58,050 bases of DNA, filler included, from Squatina squatina (GCA_031763465.1; 3 parts of 3 records of this genome joined end to end with filler, not necessarily neighbours in it); one strand, 5' to 3'; numbered from the whole stretch's first letter, positions 8,052 through 41,003 are shown. Notes: generated from the sequence alone by a model not told the origin. Numbers and translations are program-made.

Positions 8052-8125
8052 ACAGATCAGCCATGATCGCGTTGAATGGCGGTGCAGGCTCGAAGGGCCG
8101 AATGGCCTACTCCTGCACCTATTTT
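8052..8125 (+). mobile_element. CR1-type 3' tail
   Basis: gatcagccatgatcgcgttgaatggcggtgcaggctcgaagggccgaatggcctactcctgcacctatttt, reverse complement of the tail at 4190-4254. Confidence 0.75.
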
Positions 8126-8200
8126 GTAAGACCTGGGAAGAAAAGAAAGAAAAACAGAGGGATTTCCATCCTTCCCTCCCACACCAAAAACCTTTCTTAC

Positions 8201-9004: not shown

Positions 9005-9434
9005 CTTTGGAAATCAGAAAACAAAAAGCAGAAGTTAAAATGTTATTGTTACGTACACACAAGATAATGGGCATCCGAGTGATACACTGAGGCACAGCTC
9101 TCATTGTCTTCCTGTCGTGTGCTGCTGTCCCTCTGTGAGCTTTACATCATAATGACTAAGGCTGTTAATAAAGAATGTCAATATTTAGGGATAGCAAAAG
9201 AAATGCTTGCGTTTATATAGCGTCTTTCAGGATCTCAGGATGTCAGCCACTGAATTACTTTTGAATTGTAGTCATTGTTGTATTGTAGGGAAACGCAGCG
9301 ACCAATATGCACACAAGTTCTTGCAAACAGCACTGAAATAAATAACCAGATAATTTGTTTTAGGTGTTGGTTGAAGGAACTAACACAAACGGATGGAAGA
9401 AAATAATTTCAAGGTATAATTTAATCTGTTCATA

Positions 9435-10256: not shown

Positions 10257-10953
10257 NNNNNNNNNNNNNNNNNNNNNNNNNNNNNNNNNNNNNNNNNNNN
10301 NNNNNNNNNNNNNNNNNNNNNNNNNNNNNNNNNNNNNNNNNNNNNNNNNNNNNNNNCAGTCAATACTTTTGAGATCTTATTTTGAGTTGTTCAAAGCCAT
10401 AATACTGCATTTGGTGACAACCACTATCATGAGCCATTAGTTGGCTCATAACCTCTGCTGTGCGCTAGGTGAAATTACATTTCAAACTCAACACTTAACT
10501 GGTATTTTCTTTAAAATATAATAAACCAGGAAATTCTCATCAAGTGGTTGTTATCAGTCAGATGGAAATTCCTTAATGTTCACTGGGATTTATATCAAGC
10601 ACCTCAAGTGGATGTCAGACTGGATTAAACAGCTGTAGCATTTCTGACATTTTACTGCAAGTCAGCAGCAGACTTACAAGACACGAGTTACCGGCTATTA
10701 TACCATTTAATACCAACCAATGCATAAAATGACTCACGGCAGAGCTGAGTGAAATGCTGGGAATTCCCTCAGAGATGCTCCTGCTCCATCATTATAACTT
10801 TGCTGGAAGTGCACTGGAAATCCAGTTCACAAGCGCCAACAGGGTTTCCTCCGCACTTATGGTGAAGTTACAGCAGCAGTGGTAGCAGCTCTGAGGAAAT
10901 TCTGGGCCATAATAAGAGAGCCAGTATCTGTAAACATCTAATAACCATTGTAC

Positions 10954-13900: not shown

Positions 13901-14137
13901 AAATAGCACTATTGAAAACATGGGAGTATCTTTCAAACAAAGAGGGAGGAGGGTTTGGCAAAAGTTTTTCAGCAAAATGTTTGAAATAAATCTCAAAATG
14001 GATTAGGCAGATTGCAATACCTGTTTAAATTTGAGGCCACGCATAGAAAAGCTGCGGTCTATCACGAAGATTAAATTCTTAGGCAATCTTGGTAGATTCG
14101 TTGGTGCAAAATGGTGGACAAAATAGCCATTCACAAT
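10954..14137 (-). CDS. ITIH3: ITIH3-like paralog B, three VWA-domain exons
   Basis: Exons 14021-14137 (117 nt, [39 protein letters not shown]), 13406-13574 (169, [12 protein letters not shown]...LQLGA), 10954-11135 (182, [12 protein letters not shown]...[12 protein letters not shown]). The 117-nt exon duplicates the one at 8201, so this is a second gene. The 182-nt exon is on a different contig, so its assignment to B is by order only. Confidence 0.88.
11610..11953 (+). mobile_element. Deu-domain tRNA-derived SINE (SacSINE1-like)
   Basis: tRNA-like head (gttagccatggttcagtggtaa...ttcaagttcgactccag) then actgagggagtgctgcactgtcgg...gtaaaagatccc... Confidence 0.8.
12360..13224. mobile_element. 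Two CR1 LINE fragments (12360-12590 minus, 3' end; 12780-13224 plus, ORF2 C-terminal region)
   Basis: [18 protein letters not shown]...FKSEIDRF (CR1 ORF2 C-terminus) and degenerate LYRTLVRxHLE/LEKVQ motifs. Confidence 0.75.
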
Positions 14138-14576
14138 CTGAAATAATATATATGAGGCAATTGGTGAAATGTTACACAACGTGAAGAAANNNNNNNNNNN
14201 NNNNNNNNNNNNNNNNNNNNNNNNNNNNNNNNNNNNNNNNNNNNNNNNNNNNNNNNNNNNNNNNNNNNNNNNNNNNNNNNNNNNNNNNNCTCATATTTCT
14301 AGGGAAATCTCAAAATTCTTGGCTAGCTGATCTGATGTGCCATTCTTACTGGCTCATGGGGCAATTTTATAATGGGCTCAGACTTTGACCACCCCTAAGG
14401 GCTATTGCCTCCTCTCAGCCTCTGCCAGAATCCACTGGATTAGCCCTGCCGAAGGCAACATCTCGGTATCCGCAGAGTTAAATCCTCTTTTATTCCAAAT
14501 CGCATTTTGCTTGTCAAAACCTTAGGTGGTGGGGGAGTGGGGAAGAGTCAATCACAATAGCAGATCCCAAACTTGA

Positions 14577-16480
14577 AGTCTTCACCTTCTTAGGCAGTCC
14601 TTCGGGGTTGAGGATGACTCGCTTCCACTCGAGTTGTGGGTTCTGAGGTGACTAAATAGTCCTATACTGGATCAGCAAGTTTGACCACAGGTGGGACAGG
14701 CCGTGTTTGATGGGGCGAATGGGTGGGATACTCGGATTGTCGCATGCTCCTTCTGCTGCTGTGTTTGGCCTCCACATGCTCCCACCGGAGAAGCTCGAAG
14801 TGATTGGCGCCTTTGCGGATGTTTCTCCTCCAGTTTTGGCGATCTTGGGCCAGAAATGAGTCAGTAGGGGTGCTAAATTTTTTCAGGGAAGCTTTGAGGA
14901 CATCCCTGAAGCGTTTCCTCTACCCTCCTGGTAATCGCTTGCTGTGACGAAGCTCGGAGTAGAGTGCTTGTTTTGGGAGTCTTGAGTTGGGCATGTGGAC
15001 ATTGAGGCACACCCATCGCAGCTGGTTGAACGTGACCAGTGCCTCAATGCTGGAAATGTTGGCCTGAGAGAGGACGCTGACATTGGTATGCCTATCCTGC
15101 CAGTGCAGTTGAAGGATTTTGCAGAGGCGGCGTTGGTGGTACTTCTCCAGTGCTTTGAGGTGTCTACTGCATATTGTCCATGTCTCTGACGCATACAGGA
15201 GTGCGGGTATCACTGCTGCCCTGTAGACCATGAGCTTGGTGCCGGGTTTGCGGTCCTTATCTTCAAACACTCTTTTCCTCATGCAGCCGAAGGCTGTGCT
15301 GGCACACTGGAGGTGGTGTTGAGTTTCGTCGTCTTATGTCTGCCCTCACTGAGAGGAGGCTCCTAAGGTATGGAAAGTGATCCACGTTGTCCAGGGGCCC
15401 TTGATAGTTGGGGGGGTCGGCAGTGTTGTGCGGCTGGGGCAGGTTGGTGCAGGACCTTTGTCTTGCGGATGTTTAGTGTGAGGCCCATTCTCTCGTACGC
15501 CTCGGTGAATAAATTGACGATGGATTGGAGTTCAGCCTCCGAGTGTGCACACACACAAGCGTCGTCTGCATACTGCAGTTCGATGATAGAGGTTGGGGTG
15601 GTCTTGTTTCTGGACTGGAGGTGGTGGAGGTTGAACAGTTTTCCACTCGTCCTGTAAATTAACTTCACTCCAGTGGGGAGCTTCATGGAGATGGGATGAA
15701 GAGTTGTGGCAAGGAAGATGGAGAAGAGCGTCGGTGCGATGACACAGACTTGCCTGACCCCACTTTGCACTTGTATTGGGTCTGTGGTTGAACCGTTAGT
15801 GAGGATCACAGCTTGCATGTCATTGTAGAGCAGGCGGAGGATGGTAACGAATTTTTGCGAGTAGCCAAATTTGAGGAGGACCCTCCATAATCCAACCTGG
15901 TTGAACGAGTGGAAGGCCTTTGTGAGGTCAAAAAAGGCCATGTACAGAGGTTGATGCTGCTCTCTGCGCTTTTCTTGGACTTGCGCTGAAGATCATGTCC
16001 ATTGTGGCTCTTGATGGGCGGAATCCGCATTGTGACTCTGGAAGGAGCTCTTCAGCTTTCCCTATGGCAGACAGCAGGGAGATCCCTCTGTATTTTCCGC
16101 AATCAGACTTGTCTCTTTTCTTGAAGATAGTCACGCTTATAGCGTCTCGGAGATTCCCTAGCATGCTCTCCTCCTCCCAGATGAGGGAGATGAGATCATG
16201 GATTCGTGCCATGAGTGCCTCTCCACTGTACTTTAGTATTTCGGTGGGTATTCTGTCTGCGCCAGAGGTCTTGTTTTTCAGCTGCCAGGTGGCCTTTTGA
16301 ACCTCGTGTCGGGCAGGAGTTGTGCTGAGATAGTGGCAAGTAAGATGCTGTGGGATGGAATCGAGGACCGAGTCTTGGTTGAAGAGTTCCTCGAAGTGCT
16401 CCTTCCAGCGGGCGCTGACTGCCCCTTGGTCCTTGATGAGCACCTCTCCGTTTTTAGCTCTCAGGGCACTGGTGACCCAC
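14577..16480 (-). mobile_element. RTE-clade LINE, 5'-truncated, frameshifted reverse transcriptase
   Basis: Overlapping ORFs with RWKEHFEEL, YRGISLLS, LPESQCGFRPSR, FFDLTKAF, LQYADD, TKLMVYRAAVIPALLYASETWT, RLPKQALYSEL, typical of RTE; 3' UTR ends in cttaggcagtccttcggggttgaggatgac. Confidence 0.92.
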
Positions 16481-16719
16481 CCTGATTGGGTAGAGTCTAA
16501 GGCTTTGGATGTGGGCACACGTACAACCTGCTTTGCCACACTTTGGAATTTTATCCCAGTGAAAATCTCTTGATTGTTAAAAACAGGTGGTCAACTGACG
16601 CTTTAAAATCTGAAATTTAGTTGCCCAACTTATATTTTAGTAGCATAGCACAACCAGATGAAATTCTACCCCAGACTGCAAAATATTAAAAGACAAGGTG
16701 ATATTTTCTTTTGTTACAG

Positions 16720-22399: not shown

Positions 22400-22499
22400 N
22401 NNNNNNNNNNNNNNNNNNNNNNNNNNNNNNNNNNNNNNNNNNNTTAATTAATTAANNNNNNNNNNNNNNNNNNNNNNNNNNNNNNNNNNNNNNNNNNNN
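22400..22499. other. Artificial spacer N44-TTAATTAATTAA-N44
   Basis: 12-mer with stops in all frames at 22444-22455 centred in Ns; synteny switches across it. Confidence 0.95.
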
Positions 22500-22678
22500 A
22501 ACGGCGTTACCCAAACAGCGGGCAAAATCGCTGAAGCTCTAGCCTTATCAGCAAGAAGTGACAGGAAAAGCAGAGCGGTCCGTGTACTGACTCGCGCCTC
22601 AGGGATTGTTTTCTCTCGAATGTCCCTCACATCGCACAACCAGCTCTGCTCCGGCTGTGGGGTCAGAGCAAAGGCACC

Positions 22679-22702
22679 GACACACACACACACACACACA
22701 CA
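22679..22702. repeat. (CA)n microsatellite at the start of ARID1B intron 1
   Basis: Direct reading. Confidence 0.9.
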
Positions 22703-22713
22703 GGTCGCTTTAC

Positions 22714-23985
22714 CTGCGCTCTGCCCAGGGGCTGTGCCGTGCTGCCGGGGCTCATAGCCGGGTGGCTGCGGGCTTGTCCTGCCACTGCTGCTGCTGCTCC
22801 ACCTCCTCCTCCCCAGGCCTGGCTGTTCCCTACTCCGTACTGACTGCCCATGTCGCTCCCTTTAAGCGAGACCTGCGAAGCACCGGGGTTGCTGTAGTCC
22901 GGGAAGCCGTATCCCCTCATGGGGCTGGGGGAAGTCAGGAGTTGGTTGAGGGTCGGCGTGGCTCCCGAGTGCTGGTTCTGGCCCGAGTAGCGCTGAAAGG
23001 CCCCGGCCAGAGGAGGANNNNNNNNNNNNNNNNNNNNNNNNNNNNNNNNNNNNNNNNNNNNNNNNNNNNNNNNNNNNNNNNNNNNNNNNNNNNNNNNNNN
23101 NNNNNNNNNNNNNNNNNNNNNNNNNNNNNNNNNNNNNNNNNNNNNNNNNNNNNNNNNNNNNNNNNNNNNNNNNNNNNNNNNNNNNNNNNNNNNNNNNNNN
23201 NNNNNNNNNNNNNNNNNNNNNNNNNNNNNNNNNNNNNNNNNNNNNNNNNNNNNNNNNNNNNNNNNNNNNNNNNNNNNNNNNNNNNNNNNNNNNNNNNNNN
23301 NNNNNNNNNNNNNNNNNNNNNNNNNNNNNNNNNNNNNNNNNNNNNNNNNNNNNNNNNNNNNNNNNNNNNNNNNNNNNNNNNNNNNNNNNNNNNNNNNNNN
23401 NNNNNNNNNNNNNNNNNNNNNNNNNNNNNNNNNNNNNNNNNNNNNNNNNNNNNNNNNNNNNNNNNNNNNNNNNNNNNNNNNNNNNNNNNNNNNNNNNNNN
23501 NNNNNNNNNNNNNNNNNNNNNNNNNNNNNNNNNNNNNNNNNNNNNNNNNNNNNNNNNNNNNNNNNNNNNNNNNNNNNNNNNNNNNNNNNNNNNNNNNNNN
23601 NNNNNNNNNNNNNNNNNNNNNNNNNNNNNNNNNNNNNNNNNNNNNNNNNNNNNNNNNNNNNNNNNNNNNNNNNNNNNNNNNNNNNNNNNNNNNNNNNNNN
23701 NNNNNNNNNNNNNNNNNNNNNNNNNNNNNNNNNNNNNNNNNNNNNNNNNNNNNNNNNNNNNNNNNNNNNNNNNNNNNNNNNNNNNNNNNNNNNNNNNNNN
23801 NNNNNNNNNNNNNNNNNNNNNNNNNNNNNNNNNNNNNNNNNNNNNNNNCCTCCCTGAGCCTGAACCGCCGATTTTCCGTTGTTGATGCTGTCGGGGTCGC
23901 GGCTGCTCAGGCTGCCGCCGCCGGGGCCGGGGCTGCTGCCGCTGTTGTTACTGTTGGCCGGAGCTGCTGCTACTTGAGCGGCCAT
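22714..23985 (-). CDS. ARID1B: AT-rich interaction domain 1B, exon 1 (middle in gap)
   Basis: Start [12 protein letters not shown] at 23985; 3' part [25 protein letters not shown]...[19 protein letters not shown]|gtaaag; NOX3/TFB1M synteny favours ARID1B over ARID1A. Confidence 0.92.
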
Positions 23986-26900
23986 GATCATCTCTCAGAG
24001 AATCAGTCAGAGCGAGAGAGAGCAGGGGAGAAGGGAGAGACAGAGACACGTCTGCTTCTTCTCTTCCTTTTACACCCGATCATTAAATATTATTAAAAAG
24101 GAAAAAAAAACTCGTCCTCCTCCAGTTTGAAAGCAAGAGTAAACAGGCTCACGCTCTCTTTTGTTGCATGGTGATTATTATAATATATTAAATTCTATTT
24201 TTCTCTCCCTCTTTTTGTTAAATAGGTAGAAAACTTTCTCCAGATCTGTTTTAAAAATCAAACTTTCCTTTCCTCTCTAACCCGGATATGGGTAAATACA
24301 TGTCTAGCTGAGCCTCTGGCCCAGCATGGCATGAGGACTCCAACAACTATTATCCATTCCCCTTATTACTGCACATCAACTCGAAAACACGGGCTGGAGC
24401 CTGCCTCTCTCACACATACACTGTGCAAACTAAACATATCAGCCTTTAAAATATATAGTTTTTACTTCCACTTATTTCTTAACTGAATTTGGATTCNNNN
24501 NNNNNNNNNNNNNNNNNNNNNNNNNNNNNNNNNNNNNNNNNNNNNNNNNNNNNNNNNNNNNNNNNNNNNNNNNNNNNNNNNNNNNNNNNNNNNNNNNNNN
24601 NNNNNNNNNNNNNNNNNNNNNNNNNNNNNNNNNNNNNNNNNNNNNNNNNNNNNNNNNNNNNNNNNNNNNNNNNNNNNNNNNNNNNNNNNNNNNNNNNNNN
24701 NNNNNNNNNNNNNNNNNNNNNNNNNNNNNNNNNNNNNNNNNNNNNNNNNNNNNNNNNNNNNNNNNNNNNNNNNNNNNNNNNNNNNNNNNNNNNNNNNNNN
24801 NNNNNNNNNNNNNNNNNNNNNNNNNNNNNNNNNNNNNNNNNNNNNNNNNNNNNNNNNNNNNNNNNNNNNNNNNNNNNNNNNNNNNNNNNNNNNNNNNNNN
24901 NNNNNNNNNNNNNNNNNNNNNNAATATAATTAATAAAATATTCTGTTTCGGATTAAATTCCTTTCGTTATTTTACAAAAGTGACTAATGTTTCCTTTTAC
25001 ATTGCGTGTGCCAGAATGATCCAGTCCAGTTCTTTGCTCTCTCCCTGCCCCGGGTTCAATCTATTTCTCTCTTGCCTCAGAGTTAGACATAATCACAGGA
25101 TCACTGGATCCTTACGCTATTAACTTATACACATCTGCCAGCATCCAAATCAAAACTCTGCCAGCAAAAAATATTCATCCTAAAACCACCTATCCCAGAC
25201 TTGTGTGGCAACTCAGATCTGAGAATGGGGATTAAGAAAAATCAAGCAAAAATAGCAGGGACTATTTTCTCTAATGTGTCCTTTCCTTCAGTGTAATGAA
25301 CAACATTCCTAGGTTGAAGCATTCTCTGCTCTGCTCAGTGCCTATTTGCTGTTCCTATACACTCCCTCTGGAGGTCTTTTTACATTGAAAACAAATTTGA
25401 AAAATCGTTATTTTTAATCTAAAAATGCTGTATGATATTTATTTCCAATTGGTTTATGCCGACACTGAAACCCATTTCAGAAGTTTTCAGTCAGATCCTA
25501 CCAGTTTTTTTCATTTACCTAATGAAAGGGAGTTGCTTGCAATTGCTTCACACGCATCAATAGTTGTCAGTAAAATCAAACTGACGTCAGCCCTGGGTAA
25601 ACGATATGTCCCTTTTGTTCTCCTTTTTCCCAATTTGCAATCAAATAATCCAGACGTTTGCAAAAGAAACCCTTATTGCAAATGAATTTGAAGTTTGCAA
25701 TAGTGACCCAGCGATATTTTGTATGAAATAAAAATGGTTGTAGAAGGCTTTTTGATCTTTATGTTTCCCAGCGTCAGTTAGGTTCAGTTATGCCGGAAGG
25801 TTAGTTGCAAATCCTGGCTGATCTGAAATTCGATCAACAGAGGCAAGGGGCAAATAAAAGACATTTCAATGCAAATCGATGGGCTCATGAAGCCCAGAAT
25901 AGTTTCATATACAATATTTTAAATAAGCTGATAGGCTGCACAGTTATTCCATAGAATTTAAACAGAAAGAAAGAAATGAATAGCAAGACAAGCAGTATTT
26001 TTTCGGAGGGAGGAAACTAATTTCTTCAACCAACCACATTATGGTTTGTTGTGTACTTCAGGCTGCAGCGCGGAAGTAAAATTGATTGCTTTGGCAGCAC
26101 AGTTTTTTTTAAAGTAAAAAGAAAATTAACATGTTTTTATAACAGCCACTTCAGTGCAATTTAAAATTGCACACATTTTTAATCATACATTATTTACAGT
26201 GCTAACCATCAACATCTACTGCCCCTTTCTGATAAGAGACATTTAAAGAGCGGTAGTTTGAGAAAACGTTTGTACTTAAAGGGAAACTGTTTACTTCAAC
26301 AACCTGGAAGTCATCACTCATTTTTATTTTCATAAAAATTTTAAAAAGGCCTTTGGTTACAGAATAGGTTTTCAGAAAGTATGAAACAACAAAGAANNNN
26401 NNNNNNNNNNNNNNNNNNNNNNNNNNNNNNNNNNNNNNNNNNNNNNNNNNNNNNNNNNNNNNNNNNNNNNNNNNNNNNNNNNNNNNNNNNNNNNNNGTGA
26501 TTAAAGAATTGGATTTAATTATGTGAAGGTGCACACTATAGTATGTAAATCTATCTGTTTTCAGTTGTTGCTCCATTGTGTTGGGAAAACAAATACAGCA
26601 ATTTGCCATCCCATGTTGTCTGGCTCAGGCAATTTGACATGATACACCAGCTGAGACCTGCCTTATCAACTACTTCGTTGTTACAAGCAAGGCTGCGCTC
26701 ACCACAGAATCTGTTTCTAATTTAGTCCTCAACTCTTGACAGAGTTGAAGAATTGACAGCCCAAAACTCTAAACCCATTCATTTCCTTCATGTATGTGAT
26801 CCACTGGCGGATTTACCTCTTGCCAAACATTACAAAAATACAATTAGTGTTTTAATGATAAATCTGCAGATTACTGCAAAATAACCTTCAAAAGGTAAAA

Positions 26901-27711
26901 TTTAGCTATTTTAAAATTAAACTGGTAAATTCCATTTTGATAGGACTCACTTTACAGTTTTGAATTCTTTCAAAATGATCATCTTTTAGTGTAAATGCGC
27001 TGAATGCAATTAAGAAATAACGACTATAAATGGAAAAGCATGAAAGATATGATGTATTCTCTATTACACATTACCTCAGAGCCAATCAGATTAGATGATA
27101 TTAGTTAAGATATGGTATAATAAGGAAAGCACTTCATACCAAAATGTGGAGAGTATTAAAATTGTTGATTGCCTGGAGCAATTAGACACTGAAATTGAGA
27201 AGATCTCCACTTCTACTTTAGCTGCCTAATAGACAACTAAAGGTCACATGATTAACACTATAAGGCTCATCTTCACCACTACAACTCAGATAGCAGCTTG
27301 TATGCACTAATATACTTGAAAGAGATTTTTTTTTATTGTTTCAGTGAGAAAAGAATTATAGGACAGCTCAAGGTTATTTTCATCAAGGTACTGCATTTGT
27401 AATTGGTGCAATGGTCTTTTAACGCGAGACCATTTAAATGGCATGAATGATGCGCGTGTAGCATCCTCACAAAGATAATTGAAAAGCTCTGCAAATAATT
27501 CTCCAATGGCAATGGTTCCATTTTAAGTTGTATCCATTTTATAAAATGGTATTTAACATTTCCTTCCAATGCTTTAATTCCTTTTGCTTTAGGTCTTCTG
27601 CACCCTGTAATNNNNNNNNNNNNNNNNNNNNNNNNNNNNNNNNNNNNNNNNNNNNNNNNNNNNNNNNNNNNNNNNNNNNNNNNNNNNNNNNNNNNNNNNN
27701 NNNNNNNNNNN

Positions 27712-27870
27712 TGAAATGGCCTATCAAGCCACTCAGTTGTAAACAACCACTACAAAAAAGTCACCACAAGGACTCATCACCACCTTCTTGAGGGCAACTA
27801 GGGATGGGCAATAAATGCTGGCCTTGCCAGTGACGCCCACAGCCCAGGACTGAATAAATTAAAAAAAAAC
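27712..27870 (+). mobile_element. SINE 3' part (Meta-domain-like family)
   Basis: tgaaatggcctatcaagccactcagttg...caccttcttgagggcaactagggatgggcaataaatgctggccttgccag; related tails at 21678-21775, 41575-41920, 44280-44385. Confidence 0.65.
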
Positions 27871-28633
27871 CTTACGCAACTACAAAGCATTACACTTCCT
27901 GTCCTGCTGCTCCTACGTGGTACAACCCCTGTAGCTCCATGTCAGTGGGATTGGGAAGAGTGGTCATTGCATGTGGTTCTGACATCAGGTGCAACATAAG
28001 TGAACCATTCATTAATAAGGGGTATCCCTGGCTGCACTGCCCTCATCATCTCTCTCCTCCTCCTCCTCAGAATTGACTGCAGCAGGCTGCTCACATCCAT
28101 ACACCGACTGCTGAGATGCTCTCGACTGACAATCTCTGGGTTTTGGAGCCCATGAGAGATCCGCCAAAGACTGCTGTCCCTGTGCAGGGGCAGACTGTGC
28201 TACCAGGCCAAGAGGCAGCATGTCAGGGACTGGCTGAGGGTGGAGGAGGAACAGGTGAGAAATGGAAGCACTTTGAATGGAGTCCCCACTTCCATATCCC
28301 CTTTCGTTATCATCCCTCTCATGGGCCAGCCACACTTCACTGCTACCACTCTGCTGGAGAGCACTTTGATGCAGATCACTGCAGTGCTGTAAGGCCAAGG
28401 CTGAGGTATCTGTCATCCTATTTAAGGCAGCCGACATGTTGCCATCCAGAGTCTGCACAGCCACGGTCAAGGTGACCATGTGATTGCCCTGTTTGATGTT
28501 CCTTGGAGTTGACCACTCTATTCATGGAAGAAGACATCCTCGCAATGCCCTGTGACATCAATACACTCATGCTTGAATCGGTCTCCTCCATTCTCTCTGC
28601 AATTATGGTCAGTGTGATTGGAAGGTCTGTCAG
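27870..28633 (-). mobile_element. Degenerate DNA-transposon remnant, probably from the Harbinger accessory ORF
   Basis: Frameshifted low-complexity ORFs (IIAERMEETDSSMSVLM..., MSAALNRMTD...) without splice structure; resemble shark Harbinger internal sequence from memory. Confidence 0.4.
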
Positions 28634-29722
28634 NNNNNNNNNNNNNNNNNNNNNNNNNNNNNNNNNNNNNNNNNNNNNNNNNNNNNNNNNNNNNNNNNNN
28701 NNNNNNNNNNNNNNNNNNNNNNNNNNNNNNNNNAGTGGAAACAACACCAAACTCATTTGGTCAAATAGTTAATGTTCAGAATGTTAATTGGTAATTTGCA
28801 TGGTTTCTGCTGTATTTCATTGGAAGGCTCAATTACCACTGCTAGTGATGTTACTGCTATATTTTAGCTGAAAAAATGTTATTTAGGATTAAATTAATAA
28901 TTTCACCAGTAAAATTATTTTAACATCTACCTACAGGAGAATCCAGTCCCAATCAACTGTACAATCTCTTCTGAATAGTTGTTTGATTTACATGATGGAG
29001 CAGGGTGTGTTATGACTGATGGCAGAAAAATAAACTGAAAATGATAAGCAAGGGGGTGGGTTTTTTGGATGCACTAAGGGAAAAACATATGGTTCCAGCT
29101 TTAAATCTGTTTCCCTCTGAGTTTCTGATTGTATATTTTACCTTACCTATAGTATGTGAAGTATAACAAAATTAAGAACAATATTTTCTTGTTTGCTAAT
29201 TGTACCAAAAGCCTAAATAATAATGCAAAATTTAAAAACGATATAAAAATTTCTCAACTTTCTTTTGCAGTTGCATGCTCTGATAATCACATTGATGATC
29301 TTTCTGGGAATGCATTACATTATATTTTCATAGACTGGGCAGCAGCCTATCTTTGGAAATGTTTTGCCTTTGGTATAGGATTAGAATTAAACTTTAATTA
29401 TAACGAAGTAGACTCAAGTGAGCTAATTCACTGTTTCAAACAGTAGCTGTATCACTGTGAATATAAAGGTAAGAGCGGCTTTACTCAATTAAACAAGAGC
29501 ATCAGATAAATTAAATTCTGGATCATAGAGCATCTTATAAATGTCTGTTAAAATTACGAAATACAACTGCATGTTTCCCTTTCTCCTCTTCAAATCAGTA
29601 AATTCTCGATTGGATGGACCAATCTCCTGTAAATTAGCAGTTAAAACAATGTGTATTGCTTTAAATCAAGATTAAATACAGTAACAAAGTCCTGGCTGCA
29701 CGTCTGTAGTCATCTAGAGTGA

Positions 29723-29820
29723 TTAATTCTCTTCTGTATGGATTGAATTAATTTGAGTATGTCTGTGGAGCATGCTGTCAGGACACACTTCTCTCCACTC
29801 ATCTGTCCTCGGGTTCTTTT
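29723..29820 (-). CDS. Possible terminal exon of the HCN-like gene
   Basis: ttcaccag| phase-1 reading EKNPRTDEWREVCPDSMLHRHTQINSIHTEEN*, same strand and downstream of the CNBD exon; only weak resemblance to HCN GKKNS. Confidence 0.3.
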
Positions 29821-30146
29821 CTGGTGAATTTAAAATGAAGCNNNNNNNNNNNNNNNNNNNNNNNNNNNNNNNNNNNNNNNNNNNNNNNNNNNNNNNNNNN
29901 NNNNNNNNNNNNNNNNNNNNNNNNNNNNNNNNNNNNNNNNNAATCACAAATACTGTGGAGTAAGTACATGTAGCATGGACTATAAATGATGAAATGATAA
30001 GAGTCTCTCTGTAACAGACAATGGCGGAGTATTTACCAGTTCTAAACAATTAGGTTTACTTTGCTTATAATTCATTCTCAATTGTTACAGATGAGGTCAC
30101 ATGCATCCAGTATAGTGTAAAATGTTTTAGAAGTGTTCTGACCTAC

Positions 30147-32525
30147 CTCCCAAGAATGCTCCATCAGTCAACTTCTTTGAAAAATTAGGTCCCTCCATAC
30201 GCATCGTACCTCTTTCAATAAATAACATATAATTGCCAACTGCACCTTCCTGAAAGAGGACATGGCCTCTTTGAGCAACTTGAAATTTCAGTTTACTGAG
30301 CAATGCAATCATGAAGTTCTGATCACAATCCTTAAAAAAGGGGGCGTTGGCCACTAGACTGCTGCAGTTATGATGGACTACTTCCTAGAAAACACAACAA
30401 GAACAATTATTTTATTGCCTGTACAACATATTATTGTTTGTTCTTAGGATGTATGTGGCATTGGGAAGGCTGCATTTATTGCCCATCCATTGTTGACCTG
30501 AGAAGATGGTGGTGGTCTTGTCTATAAATGAATGGTTTGCTAATCACTCATGGAGCATAAATAATTAACAATAACAACTTGCATTTATATAAATGCCTTT
30601 AATGTAGANNNNNNNNNNNNNNNNNNNNNNNNNNNNNNNNNNNNNNNNNNNNNNNNNNNNNNNNNNNNNNNNNNNNNNNNNNNNNNNNNNNNNNNNNNNN
30701 NNNNNNNNTGTTCTATGGAACATCAGTGGCAGGAAAAATAATGGATTCCATACTAAACGTGAAAATAGAAGAACACCTAGAAACCAAAAATCAAATCATG
30801 TATAGTCAGCGTGGATTTCAAAAGGGAAAGACTTGCTTGACCAAACTCATTGAATTTTTTGAAGAGTTAACAGAGAGTAAACAATGTCATTTATCAAGAT
30901 TTTCAAAAAGTCCTTCACGAAGGTACCACATAATAGACTGATGAACAAGGCCAGAGAATGCAGAGTCAGGGGACAAGGAGCAGAGCGGATAGCTAGCTGG
31001 CTTCAAGACAGAAAGCAGAGAGTAGGGGTAAATGGTAGTTATTCCGAATGGCAAACAGTGGGAATTGGTGTTCCAGAAGGGACCACTGTTGTTCACAATT
31101 AATACTAACGATTTAGACTTAGAATCAAAAACACAATTCCTAAATTTGCAGATGACACCGAATTGGGGGCGATAGTCAATACTGAGGAGTTCTGCAACAA
31201 GTTACAGGAGGACATTAATAAAGTGCAGNNNNNNNNNNNNNNNNNNNNNNNNNNNNNNNNNNNNNNNNNNNNNNNNNNNNNNNNNNNNNNNNNNNNNNNN
31301 NNNNNNNNNNNNNNNNNNNNNNNNNNNNATGTCTCCTGTCGCGCCCTCAAAGGGTCCATTGGCATAAAAATTGAGTGCAATGGTGAACTTCACTGCCACT
31401 GAGAGCTGTCCTCACCCAGGTCTGGGGTTCGAGCTCTGGCTGCAAAAGATGGCAGAGCTCTGTGACCACGTCCTTGCTGAAGCATAGCCTTCGATAACAC
31501 TGTTCCTCGGTGAAATTGATGTAGGAGAACTGCTGCCAGCCTGGGTGGATAAGGTCTCCCTGATGCCAGCCCTGTTGAGCCTTTGCCTGCTGGCCACATT
31601 TTGCTGTCCTTCTCCCTCTCTCTATGCCTGTGCTTCTGCCTTTTACTTTGCCTAAGTAGCCTCCGACGGTGACGTCAGAGCAGGAGATCGGGTGTCAACA
31701 CAGCCCCCATGAAACAAGATAAATCTTGTATTTCAAATCTGCCCTCAAGGATATGGGGGAATAGTTAGGAGGCAGAACAGTCTTGAAGTGAAAATTGCTA
31801 CAATCTGTCCACCAGCCACTCTGTCTATGTGTTAGCAAACTTCAAAGAGTAATGGCTGACTAAATTTTTTTTTCACTCCTCCAGCTGACTCCCAACCCCA
31901 ACTCGACAGCAGAAGCTGTCGTTGTCATCGCCAGGCAGTAAGTCAGGGTACACGTCTGATTTTAACTTCTGGGGCGGTAACGAGGCACTGCGCACGGCGA
32001 TGACGTCATCATCGCCACGTGCAGCCAAGTGGAGTGCTTCCGGCAGGAGCGAGGCACTACCAGCGCCTCTGCAAAGTCCCCGTCCAATTCCACGGAGGGC
32101 GCTGTGTCTTTTGTGCCCCGTTAGCGCCTCCCACACAAGAGGCCAATTTTGGCCTCTTAATTTTCTATCAAGTTTGCTATATTTTTGGAAAATTTTCACT
32201 TTAAAACATGACCTGATATAGATATTGCTTTCTAATAACACTCTTTTGTACTTCCACTAGATTAATAAAAGCTTTTGCACTGTGAAAGTTAAAACCAAAA
32301 AGTCTAAAAGGCAACAAAAGATGTGAAAAATCAAGATGGTTTATAAGAGAACAATGCATATCTCACCACAAGACCTTGAATATACACCCAGCTGTTTTCA
32401 GGAAATTCCTGTATCATCACACTTAGAAACTGTAAACAGGCATTCCAGTGACAGAAGAGCACAGCAACCGCAAACCAGTACGTTAAATGCAAGACTCTTG
32501 TCATACCCACATCCCACTCATGTAT
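30147..32525 (-). CDS. Divergent HCN-like channel gene, two exons (S4-S5 linker/S5/turret and C-linker end/CNBD)
   Basis: Exon 32367-32525 (159 nt, cttccacag|IHEWDVGMTRVLHLTYWFAVAVLFCHWNACLQFLSVMIQEFPENSWVYIQGLV|gtgaga) and exon 30147-30384 (238 nt, ttttctag|EVVHHNCSSLVANAPFFKDCDQNFMIALLSKLKFQVAQRGHVLFQEGAVGNYMLFIERGTMRMEGPNFSKKLTDGAFLG|gtaggt). Boundaries and phases match HCN1-4 exons (IFHMTYD...MV and EIINFNC...SYFG). Confidence 0.88.
30709..31228 (+). mobile_element. CR1 LINE reverse-transcriptase fragment
   Basis: SQRGFQKGKTCLTKLIEFFEE, KVPHNRL, WLQDRKQRVG, KFADDT motifs with frameshifts. Confidence 0.9.
31865..32155. mobile_element. GC-rich MITE-like end
   Basis: CpG-rich patch ending ccaattttggcctc, similar to termini at 35866-35877 and 37831-37843. 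Confidence 0.45.
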
Positions 32526-32679
32526 CTGTGGAAGAAGTAATAAAGTGATTAGCAACAATAAACTTGCAATTATATAATGCATTATTACATCGCTTAGGAT
32601 TTCCCAAAGCATTTCATATCCGATAGGTTAGTTATGTACCAAAGTGACAGCCATTTTGAACACATGGATCATAGTAAAA

Positions 32680-33057
32680 TAAGAACAGGAGTAGGCAATT
32701 CAGCCCGTCAAGCCTGTTCTACCACTCTATTAGATCTCTGGTGTCTTGTACCTCATCTCTATTTACCCTTCTTTGTTTAAAATTACTTGATAGCCTTACC
32801 TAAAAAAAACTCTATCAAACTCAGTCTTGAAAATTTCAAATGACCCAGCATCCATAATCTTTAGGGGAGAGAGTTTCAGATTTCCACTACCCAAGTGTGT
32901 AAAAGTGCTTCCTGATTTCACTGCCAAAGGCCTAGCTACAATTCTAAGATTATGCCTCCTCGTTCTGGATTCTCCACCAGAGCAAATAATTCCTCTGTAT
33001 CTACCCAACTGAATCCCTCGATTTGACCCCTTAACTTCCAAAACTCAAAAGATTACA
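32680..33057 (-). mobile_element. CR1 LINE 3' end
   Basis: GESRTRRHNLRI...FKTEFDRVF and aagaacaggagtaggcaattcagccc tail. Confidence 0.8.
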
Positions 33058-33981
33058 NNNNNNNNNNNNNNNNNNNNNNNNNNNNNNNNNNNNNNNNNNN
33101 NNNNNNNNNNNNNNNNNNNNNNNNNNNNNNNNNNNNNNNNNNNNNNNNNNNNNNNNNCTGTAAACCTGTATAGTTCTATTTCAAATGCCTTGCTAATATA
33201 TCAGTCACATATTATGAAGAGTATCATGAGCATTTATGATGTTAATATCCTCAGTGATTGAAGCAAGGATTGTCAAGTCTCACAGACACATATTAGTGAT
33301 CGATTGCAAGGTAAACACAACTGCTTACTTGATGCATGACCGATTATGGTGAAATAACTGGGCTGCAAAAATGGGAAATTACTAACAAGACTATGGCTAA
33401 AATGTCTTTATCTTCACTCAAAAATTACATATATCTCCATGTAGCCTAATATACATGTAAAAAAACACTAGCTAGACATTGATATGGGTACATAGAAGAA
33501 NNNNNNNNNNAAATAGGACTTACTTCTTTCCAGTATTGCACATATCGCATAAGGCTTGAGAAACGCAATAAACGTTGTAAGGTCATTATTCTAGTTAATT
33601 TAATGAGGCGGACTAATCGAGACGCAGCATATCCTACAGGAGAGACATCAACACCACCTGCATACTTTCAAGACAGAGACATTTTAATACACAAACAGAA
33701 ACTTTGTTTTTAGAAAATGTTAATAAATCTTATGACAATGTCANNNNNNNNNNNNNNNNNNNNNNNNNNNNNNNNNNNNNNNNNNNNNNNNNNNNNNNNN
33801 NNNNNNNNNNNNNNNNNNNNNNNNNNNNNNNNNNNNNNNNNNNCAAAGACAGAACTACGATTCCCAGAGTGCACCATCAACAAAGCTGCACCTCAGCCCC
33901 AGCCTACAGTCCTGGGTAGGTAGAAAACTAGACACCAGTTGTAAAAGAGCAGAGAACAGATTAATACAACCACTACACAGG

Positions 33982-36900
33982 ATGGCAAACGGGTTTGTGA
34001 ATGAAGCGCCAAAGCTCATCATATCAGTAAGTCTTATATTTAAGTTGTTAATTTGTCAAATGTTCTTTTAGTACAAAGTTAATGTTATAAAATTCTGTGT
34101 TTTAAACATGTTATTACAAATAACAAGCACTAATTATATTGCTTATCTTTTAAAGCTAATTATCAACTTTTAATTATTTTTACAAAGTAGTTGCTCAGGC
34201 CTGTTTGGAGAAATACATTTCTGATAGTTCACAAAGAAACAAAACTAACATTGAGAAGTCTAGATAAATTATTGAAAAATAAAAGCTCCATGCTCCATGT
34301 TATACATTATACATACGGTTAGCTTTTAAGTTGCATCAGTTTACTCAGTAATTTGAAGCCGGTTCCTAACTTGCACACATTTAGAACATTTGAAATGTTA
34401 TGCATAATTGATTTTAAAAGTTTTTTTTATTGTAAACATTTGCTAACCTTCACAATAAACCATTTAAAACAAATGAAATGAACTCACATAAAATGAAAAG
34501 TTATTATTTTCTAGTTTGTGAAATAAAAGGTCTTTTTCTCATTACAGTTGTTGTGGTTGGGACTCAATACTTTCCTTTTCGGCCACACTTTCTTCCTATA
34601 TGAACGAGGGGAAGCATATATTTATACTCGTGCACTGCTTGGGGTAAGTGAGATATTATTGCCAATTAAAATACATGTTTCTCATCATTAATCTGCTCTT
34701 GGTAATAAGCTAGATATGTGTCTGATTTTTCCTATCAGTCAGCGCTGGCTTGGTCAAGAGCATCTGCGATGTGCCTCAACTTAAACACTCTCCTGATCCT
34801 GCTGCCCATCAGTCGGAATCTGATTTCATTTTTGAGAGGATCATGCAATGTATGTACTATTTCATCAAGGTACCCTGGGGTTTACACTATTCGGGAAAGT
34901 TATATACCACTTTTCACATGAAAGAAGGGTCACAAAATGTTACGTAATGTTTTTAGATTGAGGTTTGGGTTTATCTGTCACGATATATCAATTTGAGTGT
35001 GGGAATTAGAGAGGTTGGCCCTGAATTTGCAGTCGGAGGCTTCCCGCGGGGATCTGCCTCTGATCCACAAATAAAATGCCCATGTAGCTGGTGGCCTAGG
35101 AAGTACAAAGATTTGAGGTNNNNNNNNNNNNNNNNNNNNNNNNNNNNNNNNNNNNNNNNNNNNNNNNNNNNNNNNNNNNNNNNNNNNNNNNNNNNNNNNN
35201 NNNNNNNNNNNNNNNNNNNTCATTAGTGGCAGCTGACAATAGTAAAAGGTCTTAAGCGTCAGGAATGATGACTGCATTTAGTGTGCATCTATTCTTCTCT
35301 GCTGCAATGAGGTACTTCTCTGTAACAGAGCAAGTGGCGCTCACCCGCACCAGGTGAGTTAACTTGTTGAACTTCTTGCAGCACTGGTTAGGAGCCCACA
35401 CTTCCACATCAGCAGAAGATGGCCTGCCATATTGACCTATGTACTGAGGGGGCAGTTCTTCTTCCGGAGGCAGGGTACAGCTGCCCCTCCTCCTCTCCAC
35501 CGATGAGACCAGCATCTTGATTGCCACATCAGTAAATCTCCTGCAGGATACTTCCGACATGATTGGTAACAGCAACAAATCTTTCCCAGTGCCAAACAAG
35601 CTGCTGAACTGTGAACAGCCAGGCTTTTATGTGAAACAAGGCAATGGGAATGAAATTGCTTAATAAGACGTGTCACATGAAAGTGGTTGGTAAATTCAAG
35701 AGAGCGCCCCTCCAGCACCTCTATGCAGCTGTCAGCACCTGTGACAGTGCCATGCCTGGAAATCACACAAACTTCAATGAATTTTCCAGCACCAGGGCGC
35801 TAGTAACGCCTGGCGCTATTGGGGCGCTATTCCGTGCTGCAGCATTTCCAGCGTGGCGTTCACTGAATTTCTAGCCCTGGGAATCACTTTTTCTGTACGA
35901 GAATTACATATGTTTAATGGATATTGAAATCAAAGTGTTACAGAGTTTAACATATTACACAATTAAAGAAGTAGTAATGATGAAAGGTGCTCTTTAATTA
36001 AAATGTACAGCAATATCTTATTTGCTACTTGTTTCTTCCTTTTTGAATGAATCCAAAGTAAACTATAAGATTTATGAAGTAGATCTCTAGTATGTTCAAT
36101 AATGTCTTATTTCTACATTAGCATCCAGCAATTTACATTTGTGGGATTTAAAATATATATTTGAACATGAGGTATTCAATATAATTTGATTTTGAAAAAG
36201 GTAACTGGTGATTCTGACCTTATTTATGAAATGTTATCTGTATTTCTAGAACCCAACAAAAGAGCTGTTAAGTAGCACAGCAGGAGTGACTGGCATTGTC
36301 ATTACTGTGGCTTTCGTTCTGATGGTGACTTCATCTACACAGGTTATTAGGAAGTCGTTTTATGAGCTGTTTTGGTTTACTCATCATCTCTTCATTATCT
36401 TCTTTATTGGTCTCATCATTCATGGTTCAGGGTAAGCGTATTTTCTGTTTTAGAATATAGCATTAACGCAATATCAAAACGACAAATTAAAACATTCCTC
36501 GTAATAAGCTTTCACTTTGCGTAACAGACAAAACAGATGACATCAGCATTAACATATTTATAAATAATGAGGAAAGCATGAGTCCCATTTACAATTCTAA
36601 AAATGTCATTCACAAAGTATTCTAATTATACAATTAAGCAATTCAGATTATTTATACAAAAGCGAAATACTGCGGATGCTGGAATCTAGAATACAAACAA
36701 AAATTGCTGGAAAAACTCAGCAGGTCNNNNNNNNNNNNNNNNNNNNNNNNNNNNNNNNNNNNNNNNNNNNNNNNNNNNNNNNNNNNNNNNNNNNNNNNNN
36801 NNNNNNNNNNNNNNNNNNNNNNNNNNTGATCCTGTTTTACAGGCGCATTGTTCGAGGACAAACTTCTCAGAGTCTTCGGGACCACAATGTTACATACTGC

Positions 36901-38295
36901 AAGGATCATTATGAAGAATGGGGATACATCCCAGAATGCCCTTTACCACAATTTGCTGGAAATGAACCCGTAGTAAGTCAGTGTCTTTAAGCTATGGGGT
37001 GTCAAACATCTATACATATATATTGAGTTCCTTTTTATGGAGCTCTATAATGACCTGTTGGGTAAAAGCACCATGGATTTGTATGTCACAGGCAAGGCCA
37101 CATTATTTGCCATGATAAACTTTGCTCGGCCACTTCAGAGGGTATTAAAAATCAACCATGTATTGTGGACTAGGGTCCAATGTAGAGGGGGTAGATTCCT
37201 TTTCCCTGAAGGGCATTCGTGAACCAAATGGTTTTTTACAACAATGCAGCAGATTTCACAGTCACCTTTTCCTGGTAGTAGACACAAATTACCAGATTTA
37301 TTATTGAATTCAATTTCACAACATGGTGGTATTTGAACTCACAAAGTTTGCTTNNNNNNNNNNNNNNNNNNNNNNNNNNNNNNNNNNNNNNNNNNNNNNN
37401 NNNNNNNNNNNNNNNNNNNNNNNNNNNNNNNNNNNNNNNNNNNNNNNNNNNNNGCCCTTGGCTGGATCAGGCCACCATCACTACGCCTGGCACACTGAAT
37501 GGCATGCTGGTGGCCCGGTTGCTGGCGTCCCTGGTGGCCCAATGTCGGGCAGTGGGGCGCTGTCAGGATGACCGGCGGCCCTCCCTTTTAAGGGAGGCCT
37601 GGCTGAGCTGCTGACGTCAGCATGCAACGCGCTGACGCAGCGTTTTTGACACCGCTGGCATGGCGCTGAAGCCACACCACCGGCGTACAAGGCCAGCCGC
37701 CCCAGGAGTGACCGGCAGCGCGCTGAGCTTTGCAGCCGTGCCGGATCGCTGAATTCCGGGAGGGGTGGGGCAGGTGCCGGCGCGAGAAATGCCGGCTCCC
37801 TCCCTGCGCGTATCTGCACCGTGGCGCCAATAAACTTCTAGCCCAATATTTGAATAAGGTTAGTCTAAAAGAGAAACTGAGGTTCAGAATTATTCCATAT
37901 TACAATATCAAGTCTGCCTTTAATAAAAACAATTCATTTAATATAATAAGGCATTGCCTGGAGTGCTTAGGGATATTTCATAACATAGCCTATAATCTCC
38001 AGGCTGTTTCGAGTAACTGAAAACTGCAAGTAACTGAAAAGTGAGGCTGTTAGTAATGATGAACAATGGGTGCATTATGTACTTGCGTATCTGTACACTT
38101 CAAGCCACTGTGCATATTTTGCTGTGTTACAGAGTTGCAGTTGATGGTCCTTTTGGAACCGCCAGCATAGATGTGTTCTATTACGAAGTTAGTGTGTTGA
38201 TTGCTGCAGGAATTGGAGTGACCCCCTTTGCTTCTGTATTGAAATCCATTTGGTATAAGTACATTCACGCAACGATGACAATGAAAGTAGAAAGG
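33982..38295 (+). CDS. NOX3: NADPH oxidase 3, six exons recovered
   Basis: 33982-34026 (45 nt, [15 protein letters not shown]), 34548-34643 (96), 34739-34849 (111, [14 protein letters not shown]...[10 protein letters not shown]), 36250-36431 (182, NPTKELL...[11 protein letters not shown]...IHGSG), 36843-36972 (130, RIVRGQT...HNVTYCKD...CPLPQF), 38133-38295 (163, [11 protein letters not shown]...[12 protein letters not shown]). NOX3-type residues and position between ARID1B and TFB1M. Confidence 0.92.
35015..35878 (-). mobile_element. Harbinger transposon remnant with Myb/SANT-like ORF
   Basis: [19 protein letters not shown]...[10 protein letters not shown] is a degenerate Myb/SANT-like domain; termini ggccctgaatttgc (35017) and gaatttctagccc (35866-35877). 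Confidence 0.65.
36655..36726 (+). repeat. Short interspersed repeat end (Penelope-like)
   Basis: aaagcgaaatactgcggatgctggaatc...gctggaaaaactcagcaggtc; related piece at 22295-22355. Confidence 0.45.
37454..37843. mobile_element. GC-rich Harbinger/MITE-like terminal fragment
   Basis: CpG-rich block ending aaacttctagccc, matching the terminus at 35866-35877. Confidence 0.55.
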
Positions 38296-38758
38296 GTAAG
38301 TTACTTAGGTGCTAATGTTATTTTATTTAGAAAGCGTACAGAGGATATTGTACAAGTCCCCGTGATGAGACATTTAAGCAGGGAGTCACCTGACTGAACA
38401 CTGCTCACATGAGTGAACTGGGTAGCAGCCAGTCACAAATTATATGAATATCATATTACATGGGATATATGTTCCAATTAGTATAGCTCGTGTATGAATG
38501 CTCAATGCATTCATACTACATTCCTCTCTGCTATTTTTGATCAGACAGTAATCTATTTGGAATAAATGGGTTAATTCCTGTATTACGAGTGCACTGAATG
38601 GCCTTACGTGAGCTTCACCAATTGTAAAATATGCCACANNNNNNNNNNNNNNNNNNNNNNNNNNNNNNNNNNNNNNNNNNNNNNNNNNNNNNNNNNNNNN
38701 NNNNNNNNNNNNNNNNNNNNNNNNNNNNNNNNNNNNNNGACGACCCTGTAATGTGACA

Positions 38759-39528
38759 TTGGCCTGAATTTTGCGGTAAAAATAATGGTGAGGGTAACAC
38801 TGCTCGACATTATTAAACAGTAAATTGGACAGCAACTTTCGGCAGCCGCACATGCGCATTTAAACTTGGAAATCAGGAAGTTGCTGTCCCAGTTGCCCAT
38901 CTCCGCTAAAAACTGCACGTAACTGGTATCTCGCTGACAGACTCGGCATTGAAACACAGGGAACAGTGTGAAGTTGAGGTACTCGCATGAGATATACCCA
39001 CTAAACTCGCCAGAAAACATTAGGGATGTTCATTACAGTGCAAGTTATTTTTTAATGGCATAAGTCTTAATTACTGCCAAACAACCTCTCTGGCACTGAA
39101 AATTAACTTTTACAAGTGTGGAGTCTCATTCCTCCAGATTTAATTATTGTTGGAGATTTTTTTTTAATTGAAAAACTTAAATAAAATTTTATTTTACTCT
39201 ATCTTTCTGTCTCTTTTATTTCTCTCTCTTAATCCCATCCTTCTTTCCCTTTCTTTATTTTGCTTTCTGTAATTGATTTGGCATTGAATTAAATATTCTT
39301 AATTGATGCTTCCTAGCTCAGACCTTGTGTGCCTGGTATATATTCTTCAATCTAACTTAGTTAAGGAGATATACAGTTGCTTGCCATGTTCACACAGGTC
39401 CCAGATGCCCTGTACAGGGCACTGCGCTGTATGGATGTCCTGCTGACAGCAACTTGCTTACAAAACCCCATACAAAGTCTGTGGGCAAGTGCAAGTCTGA
39501 TGCGCTGCTCACAGCAAAATCTGGCCCC
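38759..39528. mobile_element. Non-autonomous TIR element (MITE-like), about 770 bp
   Basis: Imperfect inverted ends tggcctgaattttgc (38760) and gcaaaatctggcccc (39514-39528); no coding capacity. Confidence 0.55.
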
Positions 39529-39952
39529 ATAAGTTTCTGCCAAATGTTTTTCCTGTTATGATTAAAACATTTTCGTTCAGTTGTGTAGATTGAGTGTCCA
39601 GTAAGCAGTCATTATATCGGCTTTGAATGAATAATGTTCCTATGCCTTGTGATCGCTTCCTCTGCTGCTGGAAGCTATTAGCAAATGCGAAATTTTTGTA
39701 ACTGTGGATGAAATGGGTAGTGACAGAGACAAAATTAATGGCAAGTTTACATTGTTTTAAACTTTTGTAAAAGAGGATATTTGTAAAAGTAGCCAATGGA
39801 ATGCTGTGCAACTACTCGGGATGAAATGCAGCAACAGCACTAAAGTGTGAAGAGTAATAACTAACCATTTTGGATGGCCCAGTGGAGTGACACATTTATA
39901 TGCAGTAATCATTACATCCATAAGGCAGACTGTTTTCTACATCGGACATTGA

Positions 39953-40321
<369 letters not shown>

Positions 40322-40903
40322 TAAATTTCAATCTTAAGATGTTACCCTTTGTTTACATTCTCGGGATCAGCATCTCATCAATGCATCTTCCCATTCTTCC
40401 ATGCCCATGACTGGGAAGTTATAGTTTGACCTAATTAACTTGTTCAAATCAATAAATTCAGATATATAAATGTGCTACTGCTGTGATGCACATCAAATAA
40501 TTAGTAGAGTTAATGGTAAATGTGTGGATAAACATTTAAAAATAAAATTGAGGAAACATTTCTGAACAAAATTTCCACTTAGTAGACAGTGTACATTACA
40601 TTTCACATTAAAATTCAATGTAACTGTATCCTGAAAGAGAATTTCCTCAGAGATCTACAGACTATACTATGGATAGAGTGAAAATTGATGTGCTTTACAT
40701 GTCCTTTACTAGTTGTCTGAGACAAATAATAGCTTAGTACTTGGAGCTATCATCTGGGAGAGCTATATATAGATCAAATTGTAGTAAAGTTTGTGTTTAT
40801 TTTCAATTTAAGTTTTATTACCAAAATTTAATATTTAATTTCGGTATGCACACAAACTTTAAACTTTCTCAATAGCAATAAGTATGAACGAGTCGCTCAG
40901 TTC

Positions 40904-41003
40904 NNNNNNNNNNNNNNNNNNNNNNNNNNNNNNNNNNNNNNNNNNNNTTAATTAATTAANNNNNNNNNNNNNNNNNNNNNNNNNNNNNNNNNNNNNNNNN
41001 NNN
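40904..41003. other. Artificial spacer N44-TTAATTAATTAA-N44
   Basis: 12-mer at 40948-40959 centred in Ns. Confidence 0.95.

Follow-up and report, generated by a model that had tools for sequence, protein, structure and literature searches.

Exons of an HCN-like channel gene beside an ARID1-like exon in Squatina squatina point to a sister subfamily of HCNL/hcn5 that apparently has no name yet

The stretch of DNA analyzed here, referred to as the window, covers 58,050 nucleotides of Squatina squatina (GCA_031763465.1), filler included, and consists of three records joined by spacers. The artificial spacers, at 22400-22499 and 40904-41003, are each made up of 44 N, TTAATTAATTAA and a further 44 N, and neighbors across them are meaningless. 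All of the channel exons described below are found in the middle record, record 2 (22500-40903), an 18-kb series of short contigs, mostly with 100-N gaps between them, whose inner order depends on these scaffold gaps; no Rfam family was detected in this record. Record 1 (1-22399) harbors a Kelch-repeat exon (3891-4253, minus strand), VWA-domain exons resembling two ITIH-type genes (8060-14188, minus), a LINE reverse-transcriptase relic (14923-16590, minus) and, from 20782 on the plus strand, a protein-kinase exon that we take to be NEK4-like.

Three exons of an HCN-like ion channel gene lie on the minus strand of record 2. The first of them encodes the S3-S4 linker and the S4 voltage sensor (33524..33664; 141 nt, 47 aa, phase 0/0), its acceptor being set both by the isoform boundary in the database models P0002 and P0003 and by a contig from sequencing run X2. 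It is followed by a GT..AG intron of 998 nt as assembled, two N gaps included (32526..33523), and then by the exon for the S4-S5 linker, S5 and the start of the turret (32367..32525; 159 nt, 53 aa, phase 0/0, AG..GT). The third exon encodes the end of the C-linker and the first part of the CNBD (30147..30384; 238 nt, 79 aa plus 1 nt, phase 0/1, AG..GT), and is one residue shorter than in HCN1/2, in the beta4-5 region. In searches of the PDB, HCN channels account for 15 of the 16 matches to the S4 exon (best E 3e-5), the top 15 of 23 for the S5 exon (best E 3e-8) and the top 31 of 33 for the CNBD exon (best E 7e-16), with HCN ranking far above CNG for all three. The junctions after S4, after S5 and inside the CNBD are common to the window gene and HCN1-4. 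When four full-length relatives were used as tblastn queries, these three exons were matched, and nothing in the window rose above noise for S1-S3, the pore and S6, most of the C-linker, the phosphate-binding cassette or the last exons. All three exons are open with canonical splice sites, and chance open reading frames are ruled out by matches to orthologues with E down to 1e-42. A preliminary description of this DNA had reported two open, GT-AG flanked, HCN-like exons here, and these are confirmed in their peptides and coordinates and by their top PDB matches; its view that the pore exon is missing is likewise borne out, and the disabling stops that would speak against a working gene were looked for and not found in the three visible exons. 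The S4 exon, however, which it had placed in a gap, is present.

Upstream of the channel, and divergent from it, are exons of a NOX1/2/3-family NADPH oxidase on the plus strand (approximately 36250..38394), with Pfam Ferric_reduct and NAD_binding_6 domains; the open stretches fall at 36250-36432, 36829-36987 and 38038-38394 and have NOX2 as their best PDB match (E 7e-19). Downstream, on the minus strand, is a low-complexity first exon in two pieces (approximately 22666..23994, with pieces at 22666-23016 and 23851-23994), presumably ARID1B (ARID1 exon 1), to which searches of the PDB and the ESM Atlas gave no name. The order of channel upstream of ARID1 is independently supported by a sturgeon model, P0199, in which a channel of the same clade, termed clade B below, runs straight into the same low-complexity exon (45% over 110 aa, E 7e-15), since this fusion is not tied to the scaffold gaps of the window. 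The earlier placement of the gene between ARID1B and NOX3 thus stands as far as a NOX1/2/3-family gene and a P0199-supported ARID1-like exon are concerned; the NOX gene is placed to the level of its family, and the ARID1 name is our assumption.

Relatives of the gene were collected from protein databases. A search with the CNBD exon gave four proteins, among 33 candidates, that are 77-91% identical to it, and the clusters so reached, together with a search using P0007, provided the full-length models P0007 (633 aa), P0008 (XP_055495961) and P0127 (XP_038664312). P0004, also among the relatives, is an Amblyraja protein, and from closeness to it we presume the three full-length models to be shark or skate. 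The window is identical to P0007 at 161 of 179 residues (42/47 in the S4 exon, 47/53 in the S5 exon and 72/79 in the CNBD exon). Among the best 120 of 363 matches to P0007, proteins of gar (Lepisosteus, Atractosteus) and Electrophorus stand above all canonical HCNs. A search of 50% representatives, of which the best 150 of 23,251 were considered, added divergent relatives, and the ten examined include Latimeria, Acipenser and Callorhinchus as well as four that we presume to be amphibian. The orthologues have only automatic RefSeq/UniRef names, which are HCN1-, 2- or 4-like, and Pfam gives them a six-helix channel, C-linker and CNBD layout, as in HCN1-4. The AlphaFold monomer of P0127, built on 26 sequences, is poor (pLDDT 57, pTM 0.38, below 50 in the filter region) and uninformative on the filter; Foldseek on this low-confidence model nevertheless gives HCN4/HCN1 as best matches, at TM ~0.45, with HCN above CNG and EAG.

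A further query, with the sturgeon voltage-sensor region, returned 101 matches, many of them named hcn5, that carry xSYG filters and a Met in S4, which are HCNL2 features (PMC7306766). HCNL1 and HCNL2 (hcn5) are the hyperpolarization-activated proton channels of fish described by Wobig et al. 2020 (PMC7306766).

About 400 stored proteins were reduced to 59 rows, analyzed with FastTree and with IQ-TREE without supports, and then to 35 rows of 494 columns, analyzed with IQ-TREE under LG+C20 PMSF, in which the window row is 36% filled; the IQ-TREE topology of the 59 rows is the same as that of the 35. In the 35-row tree the window groups with three elasmobranch proteins (100/100), within a clade of 12 rows, here called clade B (100/100), that also holds sturgeon-like and gar proteins, two teleosts, coelacanth and three probable amphibians. 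Clade A (100/98, nine rows) comprises chimaera, sturgeon, gar-like, teleost hcn5 and HCNL1-like teleost proteins and two further rows. Zebrafish HCNL1 itself is absent from the trees, where it is represented by P0298, the S4 of which matches that of HCNL1 as printed in the supplement of PMC7306766. Clades A and B join each other at 100/100, and HCN1-4 form a clade of their own, also at 100/100; how A+B branch at depth with respect to HCN1-4 and to two outgroup rows is not fixed by this tree. Clades A and B also have in common two further introns flanking S3, deduced from the isoform skips P0003 and P0391, the motif GKWF, one additional residue after the filter and one fewer in the CNBD.

Two other readings have to be weighed here, one taking the window gene as the orthologue of HCNL1/HCNL2 in sharks, the other as a fast-evolving HCN1-4 gene. 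The union of A and B apart from HCN1-4 and the automatic names speak for such readings. Forcing elasmobranch clade B together with ray-finned HCNL, however, costs 120 log units (AU p 2.4e-5), and forcing it into HCN1-4 costs 138 (AU p 3e-12), where the alternatives are those of the preliminary description, run after the free trees had been seen. Clade A moreover has its own chimaera gene (P0171) and other neighbors in sturgeon, and the S4 Met of HCNL is absent from the window. Both forms of plain orthology are accordingly rejected and, taken together, are extremely improbable. We conclude instead, at a probability of about 0.9 for this part of our reading, that the window gene is an intact-looking member of clade B, the sister of HCNL/hcn5.

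With this result the alternatives offered by the preliminary description can be separated. That the gene might be a chondrichthyan HCNL-type channel fails as orthology, for the reasons just given. The other alternative, a new member of the HCN family whose gating or selectivity is altered, finds support, as the window falls outside HCN1-4 in a clade of its own and its orthologues carry changes in filter, S2 and nucleotide pocket. It is not, however, specific to sharks or to cartilaginous fish, clade B being found also in gar, sturgeon, coelacanth, some teleosts and probably amphibians, and a shark-specific gene is rejected on these grounds.

Judged from its sequence, clade B is a member of neither HCN1-4 nor HCNL1/2, and it is apparently an unnamed HCN subfamily. 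A search that covered few subscription papers brought up no paper that describes HCN-like paralogues of this kind for sharks, gar or coelacanth, and the available parts of PMC11700363 and bioRxiv 2026.04.08.717291 make no mention of one; a clade-B gene may already be listed among the 49 HCNL accessions in Table S1 of PMC7306766.

Since A and B each hold cartilaginous, ray-finned and, probably, lobe-finned members, we infer that the duplication that separated them predates the gnathostome split. What appear to be cartilaginous genes of the HCNL/hcn5 clade, P0171 (Callorhinchus) and P0217, have a Tyr at S4 position 3, the filter GNSYG, Tyr in place of the S2 Phe and a neutral S4 position 8; as HCNL were described from fish of the teleost type, such a chondrichthyan clade-A gene either dates the S4 gap back to the ancestor of gnathostomes or is a sign that it arose twice. 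The coelacanth and probable amphibian proteins (P0164, P0162, P0186, P0197, P0297, P0193 and P0223) fall into both HCN-like clades; most have GYG, whether regained or never lost, and some of them lack outer S4 charges (D, E, H). The two clades also occupy different loci. Sturgeon clade-A models are fused to CFAP91 and to a C4 nuclear receptor, and human 6q25 (ARID1B, NOX3) and 3q13/21q (CFAP91, NR1I2) are paralogous regions; on this basis A and B could be whole-genome-duplication twins. In Electrophorus, the clade-B model (P0131/P0132) is fused to TERF1 through a Ty3 gag relic, and this TERF1 neighbor indicates that the clade-B locus is not fixed in teleosts.

Splicing of the S4-S5 intron is observed in a relative, in one contig only, from which level and tissue are not readable. 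Run X2, which is from another organism and is guessed to be RNA, contains a 489-nt contig of depth 10.6 that skips the 998 nt between 32526 and 33525, with a one-letter ambiguity, in exact agreement with the predicted intron and with the frame kept; the same contig continues into the post-S5 intron. Of the four runs compared, X1 and X2 also contain unspliced pieces, and X3 and X4 span all three exons unbroken, as DNA would. Among the database isoforms, P0001, P0002, P0003, P0006 and P0012 skip S3 or S4-S5, or use internal S5 or CNBD acceptors, giving sensor-less forms. A decaying or lineage-relaxed copy, on its way to becoming a pseudogene and without a role as a channel, would be in keeping with the fast evolution of the gene, the many short isoform models, the S4 Gln unique to the window and the five or more exons unseen in it, as well as with the 16 of 25 codons changed among the differences listed against relatives, lists that are partial and allow no valid dN/dS. 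It is nonetheless very improbable given the intact state of the three exons, the precise in-frame splice in X2, the full-length open orthologues in several lineages and the 68-100% identity, per region, of the transmembrane regions among elasmobranchs.

As to function, the reading we prefer, tentatively and at a probability of roughly 0.4, is that the sequence encodes a hyperpolarization-sensing channel with a remodeled, non-potassium-selective cation pore and weak cyclic-nucleotide control. With residues numbered as in HCN1, consistent with PMC13095418, positions 1-9 of S4, which correspond to HCN1 R252..R276, are R R K R T R R S R in the window, with a basic residue at every third position, a Ser break and the ending YWKE. 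The S4 charges, which the preliminary description had singled out for inspection, are thus kept as seven basic residues, and the equivalents of S272 and W281 are retained, the Ser break and Trp being shared with HCN1-4; an S4 of this kind would still move inward on hyperpolarization. At the equivalent of HCN1 L266 the window alone has Gln: position 33576 (S4 codon 30) gives Gln here, where every relative, like runs X2 and X3, has Leu, and the change is either a species-specific allele or an assembly error. In the S5 exon, R297 is replaced by His and N300 by Tyr, both unlike HCN1-4. A looser or biphasic closing is predicted from these replacements because R297/N300 contacts hold spHCN shut, the N370W mutant keeping 25% of its conductance at positive voltage (PMC7078272).

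The sensor departs from that of HCNL at S4 position 3, where the window has Lys, 11 of 13 clade-B rows have a basic residue and none has Met, as against 64 Met and two Leu in the 66 clade-A matches. PMC13095418 equates this Met, M169 of HCNL1, with HCN1 R248; by the present alignment, as by the "third position" named in PMC7306766, it falls at R258. In elasmobranchs the seal is altered. The equivalent of S2 F186, read from orthologues, is A, T and A in the three elasmobranch rows, and F in all nine other clade-B rows and F/Y in all 22 outgroup rows; S4 position 8 (HCN1 R273), neutral here, is S in the window and two orthologues, or N. The chondrichthyan clade-A genes show parallel changes, with S2 Phe to Tyr and T/N at position 8.

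These substitutions raise the possibility of a channel with a dead pore that leaks protons or small cations via its voltage sensor, a condition reached independently of HCNL1. The replaced Phe seal and the neutral position 8 both sit at the constriction, R273 being just under it in the depolarized state (PMC13095418); the sequences repeat the HCNL1-like pattern of a changed filter, sensor seal and nucleotide site (PMC7306766), and the parallel changes in clade A point the same way. The only tested cause of the HCNL1 proton path, however, is the gap at S4 position 3, which is filled by Lys in the window, and M169R abolishes the HCNL1 current (PMC7306766). Bony-fish members of clade B, moreover, have a full seal. 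The PDB lists closed as well as open channels among its HCN1 F186C constructs, so loss of the Phe need not open a leak, and the S2 residue lies outside the window. We consider such a leak possible, if on the unlikely side, and return to the hyperpolarization-sensing cation channel that we favor.

The residues of the pore, S6 and phosphate pocket are likewise read from orthologues and not from the window. Two shark-like rows have the filter CLDYG and skates have CLDYA, so that the CIGYG motif, the state of which the preliminary description had left to be checked, is lost in all four elasmobranch orthologues. At the position of the first filter Gly, the 14 clade-B rows have D (3), N (5), S (2) or G (4); this Gly is kept in all nine HCN1-4 rows and all 22 outgroup rows, and the filter Tyr is invariant in all 113 rows. 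Asp in elasmobranchs, or Asn in gar and teleosts, would leave no CIGYG carbonyl filter and would instead place a ring of side chains at position 3. It is at this position that BacNav and CavAb (TLESW, TLDDW) carry an acidic ring after T/C-L (PMC8677417), and on this basis Na+/Ca2+ entry is predicted. The likeness is one of motif only: BacNav and CavAb belong to an unrelated channel family, and clade B retains the Tyr and the pore helix of K channels. An acidic residue in the filter, moreover, is not always enough for Ca2+ selectivity (PMC8677417). Among three elasmobranch orthologues, 31 of the 32 columns of S6 show no variation, compared with 326 of 451 over the whole core, and S6 is the best 32-column stretch (shuffle p 0.0026, for three related sequences); it is 47% identical between shark and gar and is not kept across clade B. 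The near-invariance suggests that the gate may still be used, and could also reflect tetramer packing.

One argument for a remodeled rather than a dead pore comes from gar, which combines a TLNYG filter with the S2 Phe, all S4 charges and an RTA pocket. With its sensor sealed in this way, a dead pore would leave the gar protein no path for ions, and the intact sensor and pocket, the kept S6 and the position-3 acid of BacNav/CavAb together argue for remodeling. What argues for a dead pore is that HCN4 is killed by Gly to Ser at the same filter position, the mutant being non-conducting and dominant negative (PMC7306766) and used as a dominant-negative construct (10.1101/2021.04.24.441237). Skates, in lacking both filter glycines (CLDYA), speak against the cation-pore reading, and the variation at the first filter Gly across the clade-B sequences is as compatible with relaxed constraint as with a new filter.

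A further possibility is that the protein is a modulatory subunit with no current of its own, which would co-assemble with either HCN1-4 or the clade-A channel and tune or suppress their current. The dominant-negative effect of substituting the first Gly in HCN4 would be the precedent; S6, the segment that lines subunit contacts, is the best kept, both chondrichthyan paralogues share sensor changes, and HCNL2 could not be expressed alone (PMC7306766). Set against this, identity to HCN1 is only 34-50% in S5, pore, S6 and C-linker, and in most fish rows the filter is changed to D/N and not in scattered residues. A silent subunit appears somewhat unlikely to us, and the remodeled cation pore remains the reading that we follow here.

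The phosphate-binding cassette keeps its G, E, R and A, with T replaced by E (REA), in all three orthologues that have the exon, as against RTA in gar and HCN1-4. The phosphate-binding Arg, which the preliminary description had suggested inspecting, shows no change in elasmobranch and gar clade B, in contrast to HCNL1, in which the nucleotide-binding Arg is not conserved (PMC7306766, Fig. S1 legend). Glu in the pocket would reduce the affinity for cAMP and especially for cGMP: in HCN2, T592A alone lowers that for cAMP about 7-8-fold and that for cGMP about 500-fold (PMC6785730, Table 1), and Glu would presumably add charge repulsion, so that weak cyclic-nucleotide control is predicted. By analogy with HCNL1 in zebrafish sperm and HCNL2 in herring sperm (PMC7533707), sperm would be the likeliest site of action. 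In its boldest form, which we regard as improbable, the paralogue beside ARID1B, inherited by jawed vertebrates, would in sharks and rays have gained an aspartate-ring filter (CLDYG) and become the first hyperpolarization-activated Ca2+/Na+ entry channel on an HCN scaffold, a candidate for the voltage-gated Ca2+ entry step of fish sperm.

The relationship to known channels can be drawn from these features. With HCNL1/HCNL2 clade B has in common, besides sisterhood and the shared indels, GKWF and S3 introns, an altered filter, a short C-terminus and, in many members, an altered nucleotide pocket; it differs as a separate paralogue at another locus, with the filter C/T-L-D/N-Y-G/A where HCNL have xSYG or a degenerate form, with Lys for Met in S4, with the Arg of the pocket kept and, in elasmobranchs, with the S2 Phe lost. 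From HCN1-4, with which it shares layout and exon junctions, it is set apart by 32-50% identity by region, by the loss of CIGYG and the change of RTA to REA in orthologues, and by the S5 replacements, extra introns and separate clade described above. The invertebrate Ih/HCN channels (spIh, of sea-urchin sperm) are of the same fold family, and CHWNAC also occurs in many outgroup HCN sequences; unlike clade B, which groups with vertebrate HCNL, the outgroup rows all keep the first filter Gly.

These observations change the inventory of vertebrate HCN channels, in that HCNL would not be a lone freshwater invention of teleosts but one of two sister paralogues that both predate the shark/bony-fish split, each with surviving members among cartilaginous fish, ray-fins and, probably, lobe-fins. 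Within clade B a single scaffold carries a natural series of filters, from GYG through SYG, NYG and DYG to DYA, together with one of sensor seals in which the Phe is kept or lost. With existing cDNAs from database models, both the loss of K+ selection in a pacemaker pore and the origin of a gating pore become testable. Whether the protein forms a cation pore, a proton leak or a silent subunit, any of these would be a new mode for the HCN-like family.
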